DNA of 32,000 bases from Nanobdellota archaeon (GTDB lineage Archaea; Nanobdellota; Nanobdellia; Nanobdellales; Nanobdellaceae). Positions 432 through 1,762 of this stretch are shown in pieces (position 1 is the stretch's first letter; every line of letters begins with the position of its first letter). The notes beneath the pieces are model-generated. The model ran no database searches and had not been told where the DNA came from. It was given only the letters and a program-made list of their open reading frames with translations. A program made the translations under genes and the position numbers. The stretch covers positions 420,001-452,000 of the forward strand of contig AP031373.1 of NCBI GenBank assembly GCA_042850255.1, read 5' to 3'.

Positions 432-920
432 ATGGTAAAAACAGCAATAGATTATTCGCATTCAAATATTGAACCAAAATATGTATTTGCCTTAGTGTCT
501 ACAGCAGATTCTATGATACCTAAATTATCTAATATGCTTATAAACCAATTAAGTATTAAACATTGGGCTAAACTTAGGAAAATAGAAAAGTCTCATTATG
601 CCGATAAGTTTTTAAGAAAATGGGATGATATAAAAGAGATTTTATATAGGGTAGATATTAAATTTTATTTTGATGATATAATAAAACAAAATAAGGATAT
701 AATAAATAATTCAACTGAAATTATAATTGATGATACTATATTTTCAAAGTATTTAAGAAAATATGAGGGAAAAGGAAAATTAATATTAGAAAAAGATGCG
801 CAAGGATTTAGAAAGGCATTTATAGATTTAGCAGATAATATATGTAATATTGTTAGATGGTTATGGAACAAAAAAGATAATTATAAAAAACAAATAATAT
901 TAGAAAAATTTATTAAATAA
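432..920 (+). CDS. hypothetical protein (162 aa), soluble, no recognisable family
   Basis: Long ORF in AT-rich DNA with K/I/N/D-rich composition like the neighbouring genes. No motif recognised. It lies in the tRNA-adjacent islet. Confidence 0.6.
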   Translation: MVKTAIDYSHSNIEPKYVFALVSTADSMIPKLSNMLINQLSIKHWAKLRKIEKSHYADKFLRKWDDIKEILYRVDIKFYFDDIIKQNKDIINNSTEIIIDDTIFSKYLRKYEGKGKLILEKDAQGFRKAFIDLADNICNIVRWLWNKKDNYKKQIILEKFIK

Positions 921-975
921 CTCCACCTCCCATTTCATCGCCCCTCCCATATAGGGAGGCCCGCTCCGGGAGGTG
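921..975. ncRNA. candidate small structured RNA (GC-rich island with nested helices); strand undetermined, minus slightly favoured
   Basis: This is the only majority-G+C non-coding stretch in the window apart from the tRNAs. CCTCCC occurs at 926-931 and 943-948, and GGGAGG at 954-959 and 968-973. The inner hairpin pairs 943-948 with 954-959 (loop ATATA). The outer 8-bp helix pairs 924-931 with 968-975. Asymmetric internal loops lie at 932-942 and 960-967. Confidence 0.45.
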
Positions 976-1139
976 TTAAATATAACTTTATATAGTTTAT
1001 AAACTTTATAAAGTTTATCTAAATTCAAAATGCTTAACAGCGAGTCTTTTATAAAAACTGATGTGAACAATAATATAAATTTATATAATTAAATAACTTA
1101 TAGAATATATTTAGGAGATAATACACAGAAATTAGAAAA

Positions 1140-1508
1140 TTATTTATGCTTTTTATATTCTTTTAATAATTCTTCATCAAATGTTTCTAAATTTGTATTT
1201 AACCTTAAAGCGGTATGTAATATTATATAATCGTTAAATTCATCATAACTTTTTGGTTTATTATTTATTGAAAAAATTATATCTTCTATTGAATTATCTA
1301 CAAATTCTACTTCTTCAGAATATAATAGATCTTTTATTATTGATAAATCGATATTGCTTTTCTTTAATATATATGTTAATTCTAAAATAGTTACTGTAGT
1401 CATTATTATTTTATCATATTTATTTATTATTTCTACAGCTTTTTTATGATTAGTATCATTTTTAACTAAATATGAAAATATAACGTTTGTATCTAATATT
1501 GAAATCAT
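1140..1508 (-). CDS. vapC: PIN-domain ribonuclease toxin VapC
   Basis: The N-terminal ILDTNVI motif carries the first PIN acidic residue. ILELTY supplies the conserved Glu, and the C-terminal half has D/E residues. Size is 122 aa. It overlaps the upstream AbrB-type gene by 4 nt, the classic vapBC layout. Confidence 0.85.
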   Translation of the reverse strand: MISILDTNVIFSYLVKNDTNHKKAVEIINKYDKIIMTTVTILELTYILKKSNIDLSIIKDLLYSEEVEFVDNSIEDIIFSINNKPKSYDEFNDYIILHTALRLNTNLETFDEELLKEYKKHK

Positions 1509-1762
1509 TTCTTTTCTATTTTATTTGTTAGTTCATTTATTATTTCATTAATTTCCCTATCAATATCCATACTTTTTATATTTGTACTTTCTATTATTCC
1601 TTCTAAATCTTTTAACTTTTTTCTTTTAGGTATTATTTTTATTTCATTATTATCATAAATCACAATAACTTTATCACCAATTTTTATTCCTAGTTCTTCA
1701 GCTATAATTTTTGGTATAGTAATTTGATAATTCCTAGTAACTTTTACTTCTTGCATTATCAT
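1505..1762 (-). CDS. vapB: AbrB/SpoVT-family antitoxin VapB
   Basis: The N-terminus VKVTRNYQITIPKIIAEELGIKIGDKVIV is a typical swapped-hairpin AbrB/MazE DNA-binding domain. It is 85 aa and translationally coupled to vapC. A TATA-like CTTTATATAC lies about 25-35 nt upstream on the minus strand. Confidence 0.85.
   Translation of the reverse strand: MIMQEVKVTRNYQITIPKIIAEELGIKIGDKVIVIYDNNEIKIIPKRKKLKDLEGIIESTNIKSMDIDREINEIINELTNKIEKK

Follow-up and report, generated by a model that had tools for sequence, protein, structure and literature searches.

A conserved GC-rich hairpin with a kink-turn-like internal loop is linked to a gene for a predicted RNase-H-fold protein in archaea

Introduction

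Does a short GC-rich island directly behind an open reading frame (ORF) in an AT-rich archaeal genome encode an RNA and, if so, what kind of RNA and on which strand? The question is raised by positions 921-975 of a 32,000-nucleotide stretch from a Nanobdellota archaeon (G000:C1:420001-452000, hereafter the window), for which a reading of the letters alone (the original prediction) had proposed an unannotated structured RNA. The genome is a single contig of 773,326 bp with 23.4% G+C, and its order also contains Nanoarchaeum equitans. The island begins one base past the stop of ORF 432-920, at position 920. Here we report that the element is genuine and conserved: it is a structured RNA that folds as a hairpin whose internal loop resembles a kink-turn, and it recurs beside homologues of the same ORF. 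We argue, with slightly better than even confidence, that it represents a small minus-strand kink-turn RNA gene, probably bound by L7Ae and coupled to the convergent gene of an RNase-H-fold protein within a mobile cassette.

Results

The island folds into a nested hairpin whose two helices covary

In a 55-nt sliding scan of the window only three non-coding stretches exceeded 50% G+C, namely positions 910-993 and the two tRNAs, and G+C peaked at 65% over 921-975 against a non-coding average of 19.6%. This agrees with the original prediction, which had described the island as the only majority-G+C non-coding stretch apart from the tRNAs. Direct reading of the plus-strand sequence (ctccacctcccatttcatcgcccctcccatatagggaggcccgctccgggaggtg) likewise placed CCTCCC at 926-931 and 943-948 and GGGAGG at 954-959 and 968-973, next to the stop of ORF 432-920, as had been described. 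The nested hairpin that had been drawn from these repeats is the minimum-free-energy structure on both strands (z about -4.4), at -26.2 kcal/mol on the plus strand (z -4.28) and -30.7 kcal/mol on the minus strand (z -4.50), and none of 200 shuffles folded as well in either case.

Homologues of the hairpin were found in relatives. BLAST gave a match at E 1.7e-8 to N. equitans Kin4-M (AE017199), which has two copies, at 488409-488461 (-) and 487436-487492 (+), and one copy is present in another Nanoarchaeota metagenome-assembled genome (G016, CAYXSZ010000008.1). Covariance models were made from two sequences (R1) and from four (R2); because a MAFFT alignment of the four was out of register in helix 2, the model was bootstrapped from two. 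Later members were taken from contigs encoding homologues of ORF 432-920. The core set has nine members scoring 32-69 bits, comprising the window, both N. equitans copies, G016 and metagenome contigs. Model matches of 47-69 bits (E 1e-8 to 1e-13) were obtained in N. equitans, L027/L087, L102, L109 and L117, with 47 bits for L102/L103, 62 bits for each of the two copies in L109 and 64 bits for L117/L118; L106 scored 32 bits. Exact-pattern scans of metagenome, genome and viral collections returned only known members and chance matches in GC-rich bacteria.

Both helices covary. Across five sequences both sides changed in 7 of 14 pairs, a value that none of 500 shuffles reached, and 94-96% of helix cells were paired (94% on the five sequences); when the partners were slid by 1-3 columns as a control, pairing was only 43-69%. 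In an eight-sequence alignment, 105 of the 112 helix cells are Watson-Crick, four are G.U, one is A.C and two are other combinations. The outer helix H1 (pairs 4-9/56-61 of alignment A7) is Watson-Crick in 47 of 48 cells, with compensatory changes from U-A to C-G and from C-G to A-U or G-C, and from C-G to G-C at pair 5/60 in L106. The inner helix H2 shows both-side changes in five of its six pairs across homologues, reading CCUCCC/GGGAGG in the window, CUCGGG/CCCGAG in L102, CCUACC/GGUAGG in L109 and CCCACC/GGUGGG in G016 and L106. The apical loop spans 5-10 nt in core members, with 65-70-nt insertions in L107 and L108, and the internal-loop nucleotides GGAG (5' side) and C, AUGA and A (3' side) are invariant in the core set. 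Folding of homologous loci, which had been suggested as a check, shows compensatory changes in both helices, and these, together with the invariant loops, demonstrate the conservation and covariation of the structure proposed for the window.

It had also been proposed that either CCTCCC could pair with either GGGAGG, so that mutually exclusive folds might form. Such alternative pairing is possible in the window copy and absent from the homologues; it is not a conserved switch, because the two helices of the homologues differ in sequence from each other (in L102, CCCCCC/GGGGGG in the outer helix and CUCGGG/CCCGAG in the inner one).

The minus-strand internal loop resembles kink-turn Kt-7

Read on the minus strand, the element and its surroundings have the following parts, in window coordinates.

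922..976, minus strand: structured RNA core, 5'-ACACCUCCCGGAGCGGGCCUCCCUAUAUGGGAGGGGCGAUGAAAUGGGAGGUGGA-3' (covariance-model match, 79.5 bits with R1 and 69.5 bits with R2)
968..975, minus strand: 5' arm of outer helix H1 (CACCUCCC), paired with 924-931 in the minimum-free-energy fold
960..967, minus strand: non-bulged kink-turn strand, 5' internal-loop GGAGCGGG, giving G(3n) G(2n) A(1n), then G-C (C-stem)
954..959, minus strand: 5' arm of inner helix H2 (CCUCCC), paired with 943-948
949..953, minus strand: apical loop UAUAU, variable in sequence and length across homologues
943..948, minus strand: 3' arm of inner helix H2 (GGGAGG), paired with 954-959 in the minimum-free-energy fold
932..942, minus strand: bulged kink-turn strand, 3' internal-loop GGCGAUGAAAU, giving G-C (C-stem), GAU (L1-L3), G(1b) A(2b) A(3b), AU
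924..931, minus strand: 3' arm of outer helix H1 (GGGAGGUG), paired with 968-975
996..1018, minus strand: candidate archaeal promoter with two TTTATAAA boxes, from direct reading
870..908, minus strand: candidate terminator, T5 at 904-908, T6 at 885-890 and T6 at 870-875, inside the last codons of ORF 432-920
432..920, plus strand: partner gene for a 162-aa protein with a predicted RNase-H-like fold (AlphaFold2 and Foldseek)

In the minus orientation the 5' loop strand of the family reads H1-G-G-A-G-Y-R-G(G)-H2 and the 3' loop strand H2'-(G/A)-G-C-N-A-U-G-A-(A/C)-A-Y-H1'. The strands of Kt-7, from the 23S rRNA of Haloarcula marismortui, have been published as GGCGAAGAACC and GGGGAGCC (PMC4382518). 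The bulged strand of the element (932-942) matches GGCGAAGAA of Kt-7, with GGC-GAU-GA-A here and GGC-GAA-GA-A there, and the non-bulged strand has GGA-GC for the GGA-GC(C) of Kt-7; the GGAG that is invariant in all nine core members matches the GGAGC of the Kt-7 lower strand GGGGAGCC. In most members the -1b.-1n pair is C-G and the 3b.3n pair A.G, a combination reported to fold in Mg2+ alone (PMC4382518). This near base-for-base correspondence demonstrates the identity of the motif. The two also differ: the element is a free-standing 55-nt hairpin rather than a part of rRNA, and its kink and its protein binding are predictions; its C-helix is only 2 bp long and runs into a G-rich 3x1 loop; 2-3 extra nt lie on the NC side before the outer helix, and 3b is C in three members.

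Variation among the members favours the kink-turn register. G51, A52, G11 and A12 are invariant in all nine core members, which at the sequence level provides the tandem G.A/A.G pairs of a kink-turn, and a three-nt bulge (N-A-U) follows a Watson-Crick C-helix, as in simple kink-turns. Within the C-stem, G13-C47 is invariant and Y14-G46 is C-G in five of eight members, U-G in two (N. equitans copy 2 and G016) and U.U in one; in L107 the stem flips to C-G/C-G. In two members the rival CG/CG register, that of the minimum-free-energy fold, is broken by an A.C; the bulge itself changes just once, from G to U at L1 in L102, and this affects neither the G.A pairs nor the register. Because changes in the C-stem are kept paired, the rival register breaks and the L1 change is tolerated, we favour the kink-turn register. 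The 3b.3n pair is A.G in 5/8 members and C.G in 3/8. On the bulged strand 2-3 unpaired nt (A-Y) then separate it from the outer helix of 6 bp; in seven of the eight, G10 could instead pair with Y55. When L104 was tried as a member of the kink-turn template the fit failed, and it was treated as a divergent hairpin.

The same comparisons bear on the strand. Four G.U pairs of the minus strand would be A.C mismatches on the plus strand, with one cell opposing, and the minus orientation folds better in 8/8 core members (mean -3.4 kcal/mol); at three Thermococcus loci described below its advantage is -13 to -17 kcal/mol in two and -3 kcal/mol in the third. The G.U pairs and the energies favour the minus strand and, with the Kt-7 match, they lend support to the earlier proposal of a functional minus strand with a K-turn internal loop. 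A plus-strand function, as a hairpin in the 3' untranslated region of the ORF mRNA that stabilises it, is processed or binds the ORF's own product, would make the kink-turn incidental and appears unlikely to us. The element does lie 1-25 nt past the ORF stop at nearly every locus, in the tandem array of L109 a hairpin sits between same-direction ORFs, and the plus strand too folds well, at the z of -4.28 given above; moreover the ORF mRNA should read through it, because the plus strand has no T-run of at least four before about position 1047, as the original prediction had noted for its vicinity. However, the plus strand would have A.C mismatches at four helix pairs and the minus strand at one, every member loses stability in the plus orientation, and the loops match Kt-7 when read on the minus strand but no known motif when read on the plus strand (UUCAUCGCC / CCCGCUCC). 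In addition, N. equitans copy 1 and the copy in G016 have been kept with no ORF upstream of them.

As judged from its sequence, the minus-strand kink-turn most likely recruits L7Ae, a gene for which is encoded in the source genome. L7Ae binds mRNAs and small RNAs (sRNAs) of unknown function via such motifs and regulates translation (PMC5539422). In its layout, with a basal NC helix and a short loop-capped C-helix, the element resembles the K-turns of the U4 small nuclear RNA 5' stem-loop, box C'/D' motifs and archaeal l7ae mRNA leaders (PMC5539422, PMC6298567), and the main ligand of such small hairpins is a K-turn protein. Unlike the l7ae leader hairpins, it does not lie in a 5' leader and has no start codon or Shine-Dalgarno sequence in its helix; it also has no guide regions and is linked to a nuclease-like gene rather than to l7ae.

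Candidate transcription signals flank the hairpin

Two TTTATAAA boxes on the minus strand, at 996-1003 and 1005-1012, start 30 and 39 nt upstream of H1, within a 20-bp palindrome (999-1018). Direct reading of these and of the T5 and T6 runs downstream agrees with the signals that had been pointed out on this strand. In seven of eight core members a TATA-like box precedes H1 by 30-49 nt, and a T-run of at least four occurs 1-38 nt downstream of the hairpin in all eight (within 1-14 nt in five); the first T-run is partly forced, because it overlaps the conserved C-terminal Lys codon and the stop of the ORF. From these signals we infer minus-strand transcription from a putative promoter to a putative terminator.

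The minus-strand T-runs that follow the hairpin would also suit a general two-way transcription stop, or an insulator, at the junction of convergent genes, in which case no dedicated RNA would be made. Convergent genes do flank the element both in the window (ORF 432-920 and vapBC) and in Thermococcus prieurii virus 1 (TPV1; gp25 and gp26), and in N. equitans and L117 the element lies just past the trailer of a clustered regularly interspaced short palindromic repeat (CRISPR) array. We nevertheless hold this to be quite improbable: a terminator does not require invariant asymmetric loops across genera, and the element is tied to one gene family rather than to convergent pairs generally and is single-copy in the genome. 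Archaeal termination is not known to depend on hairpins.

Known RNA classes do not account for the element

In a search of the window with Rfam 15, which had been called for, only the two tRNAs reached the gathering threshold and no family matched the island, where matches stayed below 18 bits at E up to 10; at the N. equitans, G016, L109, L117 and Thermococcus L114 and L116 loci only tRNAs and CRISPR repeats were found. ARAGORN detected no tRNA, tRNA half or transfer-messenger RNA at the element or the homologous loci. BLAST, regular expressions and the covariance model found no further copy of the element in the source genome, so it is neither a dispersed repeat nor the complementary leader of a split gene; the BLAST check for recurring CCTCCC/GGGAGG modules, which had also been suggested, found none in the genome.

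Box C/D sRNAs have C (RUGAUGA), D (CUGA) and C'/D' boxes with 10-12-nt guides between them. The element has a single CGAUGA, no CUGA, no second box pair, no guide-length spacers and no Rfam C/D match, and it is unlike the 26 C/D sRNAs of N. equitans. Archaeal H/ACA sRNAs have a lower stem, a pseudouridylation pocket, an upper stem with a K-turn or K-loop and an ACA directly 3'. Here no member has an ACA after H1, the K-turn fills the internal loop, and the upper stem and loop are without a K-motif. A GAUGA core and a K-turn are indeed features of C/D and H/ACA ribonucleoproteins (RNPs), and the tRNA halves of N. equitans use GC-rich complementary leaders. Even so, a divergent guide RNA or a split-tRNA leader is effectively refuted by these membership tests and seems to us scarcely credible: besides the missing D box, second box pair, 10-12-nt guides and ACA after the lower stem, the K-turn lies in the would-be pocket, the apical loop is variable while the internal loops are invariant, Rfam and ARAGORN give no match, and no complementary partner occurs elsewhere in the genome. 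The failure of the original prediction to match the island to tRNA halves, C/D or H/ACA RNAs is thus upheld by Rfam, ARAGORN and the motif checks alike.

The element is one half of a patchily distributed cassette

In every homologue locus that could be fetched, a GC-rich hairpin with GA...GA loops follows the ORF stop on the opposite strand. This demonstrates the gene linkage, and the island, which had been called isolated, is instead one half of a conserved ORF-plus-RNA cassette. ORF and hairpin occur together in the window, L102/L103, L104/L105, L106, L107, L108, L109 (twice), L110 and L117/L118, and also in N. equitans, at three Thermococcus loci and at gp25 of TPV1; the hairpins of L104, L107, L108 and L110 are weaker and divergent. 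The distance from the ORF stop is generally 1-25 nt (1 nt in the window, 3 nt in L102, 6 nt in L106, 6 nt in L109a and 5 nt in L117), and in one case, L109b, it is 70 nt, the hairpin there lying beyond an extra 70-nt GC-rich element, 'X'. The three Thermococcus chromosomes carry a longer nested hairpin with tandem GA/GA, and in TPV1 the hairpin lies between gp25 and a convergent RecB-like nuclease gene, gp26.

Element 'X' is itself found at two loci, L109:1031-1102 and N. equitans L010:735-805 (AE017199, about 487647-487717), between a P0012-type ORF and the hairpin. It has a closing stem ACGGC/GCCGU and an inner helix with compensatory changes (CCCGG/CCGGG vs CGGGG/CCCCG) and no Rfam match. 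In L106 a second paralogue of the ORF family (MGKEDKILRDLITGIDWSGS...) starts 150 nt past the hairpin (L106:813-1270); because L106, like L109, has a second paralogue after the hairpin, cassettes occur in tandem.

Both parts are rare. Among 151 genomes of the class, the ORF was found in two and the RNA in three, and the sets overlap. Neither part was found in 12 other species representatives of the same genus that were searched, two of them single-contig and ten of them within the class-level searches. In N. equitans the ORF is broken, with a TGA at a conserved Trp and a TAG/frameshift (profile E 1.8e-26), and both RNA copies, which flank it in inverted orientation, are intact. No ORF was found in G016, a genome 69% complete whose contig starts 81 nt upstream of the element. 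Viral-contig scans seeded with the protein and a plasmid search found none, and the phage-record search alone gave TPV1. The element is accessory and patchily distributed rather than a core RNA gene, and ORF and RNA look like one small mobile cassette.

The neighbourhood is in keeping with this. In the window the cassette lies among a tRNA-Lys, a vapBC pair and other accessory-looking parts; a xerA-like gene lies near the element on the L102 contig, and the L104 and L108 contigs carry AAA_14/DUF4143 and DUF234 ATPases. Along the direction of array transcription, the element of N. equitans and of its relative L117 follows the final CRISPR repeat by about 100-110 nt; T. nautili has an array of 20 repeats whose end is 290 nt upstream of the ORF. 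The xerA-like gene, the ATPases, vapBC and the CRISPR neighbours fit a mobile accessory cassette. No CRISPR array lies near the ORF in T. prieurii or T. thioreducens, and a crude periodic-k-mer scan of the source genome found neither a CRISPR array nor an N. equitans-like repeat; because the source genome is without an array, CRISPR adjacency is not general.

Several further observations concern these neighbours. The vapBC pair (window 1140-1762, minus strand) lies directly upstream of the RNA on the same strand and consists of a PIN-domain toxin (1140-1508) and an AbrB/MazE-type antitoxin (1505-1762). The cassettes beside CRISPR ends come from two unrelated lineages (L117:3680-4210, GCA_054016815.1 JBPMCH010000006.1; and L116:1469-2709, T. 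nautili CP007264), with L117 sharing the CRISPR repeat of N. equitans and the T. nautili array being CRISPR-DR6. Solitary partial CRISPR repeats outside the N. equitans array (L010:1470-1495 and L010:313-335; 23/28 nt and 19 nt) flank the cassette region by the CRISPR trailer, one of them 5 nt after hairpin copy 1. A second conserved GC-rich hairpin lies beside a xerA-like gene at G000:C1:414399-414450, 5.5 kb before the window, and at L102:3391-3444; it contains a K-loop-like GGA...AAUGAA. The end of the L102 contig (L102:3716-3758) is Nextera adapter (CTGTCTCTTATACACATCT...), which the gene caller translated into the end of an integrase-like ORF. Elsewhere in the source genome, G000:C1:492819-492893 is an orphan GC-rich fragment like a tRNA 3' half (T-arm and acceptor) with no adjoining 5' half.

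Mobility raises the possibility that the hairpin acts as DNA, as a single-strand site for recombination or movement of the cassette in the manner of attC or REP/RAYT elements, recognised by the RNase-H-fold protein. The distribution is patchy and mobile and includes a virus, the ORF fold also resembles retroviral integrase cores, and the N. equitans ORF is flanked by an inverted pair of copies. Like attC and REP/RAYT sites, the element is an imperfect nested palindrome at the 3' end of a cassette ORF that keeps structure over sequence; it combines two helices and conserved unpaired bases with an apical segment that varies widely, from 5 to 70 nt, and in the tandem array of L109 the element and its spacer are about 96% identical between cassettes with divergent ORFs. 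We still regard a DNA-level site as doubtful. Two flanking copies occur in N. equitans only, one per ORF being usual elsewhere; there are no target-site duplications, no conserved R-box-type core and no consistently linked tyrosine-recombinase or HUH gene, and the best fold matches of the protein are RNase HII rather than transposases. Integron attC sites have the form R''-L''...L'-R' with a GTTRRRY core and form arrays by an intI gene with diverse cassette ORFs; here the alignment contains no core or R'/R'' sites, no intI gene for an integron integrase is linked (only the xerA-like gene of L102) and there is one ORF family. Finally, the conserved loops come close to a perfect RNA kink-turn, and this motif relies on 2'-OH contacts.

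ORF 432-920 encodes a predicted RNase-H-like protein

The AlphaFold2 model of the ORF 432-920 protein has a pLDDT of 91.2 and a pTM of 0.89. In Foldseek its top eight matches are archaeal RNase HII structures (prob 1.0, TMq 0.44-0.54), including those of T. kodakarensis, P. horikoshii and A. fulgidus, followed by RNase HIII and integrase cores, and on these models we confidently assign the protein an RNase-H-like alpha/beta fold nearest to RNase HII. Acidic residues D7, D100 and D135 are conserved, with a spacing that presumably resembles that of the catalytic Asp residues of RNase HII, and the DE dyad of RNase HII motif 1 is DW or DY here. The protein matches no Pfam or NCBIfam family, PF01351 included, and hhalign found no similarity between the ORF family and the genome's own RNase HII, which is separate and canonical. 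It thus differs from type 2 RNase H in being shorter (160 vs about 210 aa) and in showing neither sequence-profile similarity nor the full D-E...D...D set.

Relatives of the ORF are rare: 11 were found among 1.8 billion representative proteins, and a profile search gave 29 matches among 5.8 billion proteins, including hypothetical proteins of Thermococcus barophilus, T. thioreducens, T. nautili, T. prieurii, T. sp. LS1 and Palaeococcus ferrophilus; phrog_31239 matches four of nine family members. The possibility, raised with the original prediction, that the island is the coding 3' end of a longer ORF in relatives was looked for: no relative's ORF runs into the element, and the stop position is shared by all homologues. 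An operon of two genes is present in T. nautili and T. prieurii (L116:2804-3004; L119:3804-4004): the ORF homologue comes second, after a gene for a conserved basic 66-aa protein with no Pfam family, and the two overlap by 4 nt, a layout like that of type II toxin-antitoxin (TA) systems.

Discussion

The evidence presented here points to a new RNA family with a known motif, in an apparently undescribed gene-RNA pairing. In the mechanism that we propose, 922-976 on the minus strand would form the core of a small non-coding RNA about 60-85 nt long. Its transcription would start from the TTTATAAA boxes at 996-1012 and stop at one of two T-runs (904-908 or 885-890) that overlap the final codons of the convergent ORF. 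The RNA would be a GC-clamped hairpin in which an 8-bp outer helix is followed by a Kt-7-like kink-turn (GGA|GC facing GC|GAU|GA-A) and then by a short internal loop rich in G, beyond which an inner helix of 6 bp carries the variable apical loop. Its kink-turn would bind the genome-encoded L7Ae to give a stable RNP. As the obligate neighbour of the gene for an RNase HII-like protein, the RNA would make up with it a cassette of two parts that is rare and moves horizontally; a few Nanoarchaeota carry this cassette, and Thermococcales and the virus TPV1 have versions with related hairpins. It might control the nuclease mRNA in cis, in an antisense or antitoxin-like manner, or serve as the RNA partner of the protein; because the two genes converge with overlapping 3' ends, an action in cis is probable. 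Both the L7Ae binding and the regulatory role are what we infer from the motif and the arrangement of the genes.

A number of points weigh against this proposal. The core set is small and partly related, the L109 copies being about 96% identical and L117 and N. equitans being kin, and alignments made by a covariance model are fitted to the modelled structure and so biased towards it. The kink-turn is not a textbook one, given the extra 2-3 nt between the G.A pairs and the outer helix and a C-stem of just 2 bp before the G-rich internal loop, and L110, L108, the Thermococcus loci and TPV1 keep the tandem GA/GA but either have no 3-nt bulge or carry a U at 2b. The energy argument for the strand is weak, because G-rich strands tend to fold better anyway, and TATA-like and T-run signals are cheap in DNA of 20% G+C. 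The N. equitans sRNA tables (Randau 2012) list nothing at either element locus. An antisense or antitoxin role, lastly, is pure conjecture.

The closest parallels for such a role are type I TA systems in which an antisense RNA converges on the toxin gene with overlapping 3' ends, such as txpA/RatA and bsrG/SR4 of Bacillus subtilis. In the cassette, too, the 3' end of the small RNA would overlap that of the convergent protein gene, a geometry conserved across loci; the cassette is patchy and associated with mobile elements (next to vapBC, and in a virus), it shows tandem duplications, and the RNA is kept where the protein gene decayed (N. equitans and G016). Unlike type I toxins, the cassette protein is not a small hydrophobic peptide but a soluble protein of 160 aa with an RNase-H fold, and the Thermococcus versions have the extra upstream 66-aa partner protein. 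The module recurs by the ends of CRISPR arrays, both in the related N. equitans and L117 and, independently, in T. nautili. We tentatively suggest, as a possibility, that it is an undescribed mobile RNA-protein module of hyperthermophilic archaea and their viruses, in which the structured RNA, bound by L7Ae, restrains a nuclease, as in addiction or abortive infection, or in which the small nuclease employs the RNA encoded beside it as a cofactor or scaffold.

For N. equitans, an intensively studied minimal genome whose published small-RNA catalogue is without the element, the findings add a covariation-supported RNA family that is absent from Rfam, and they link this RNA to an unnamed family of proteins for which an RNase-H fold is confidently predicted. 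Because the arrangement also occurs in cultured Thermococcus, a genus with genetic tools, and in TPV1, its function is directly testable. If the RNA does prove to be an L7Ae client that controls a nuclease, it would represent a new use of the kink-turn and L7Ae beyond ribosome and guide-RNP biology, and the cassette would be a new type of archaeal mobile-element module.

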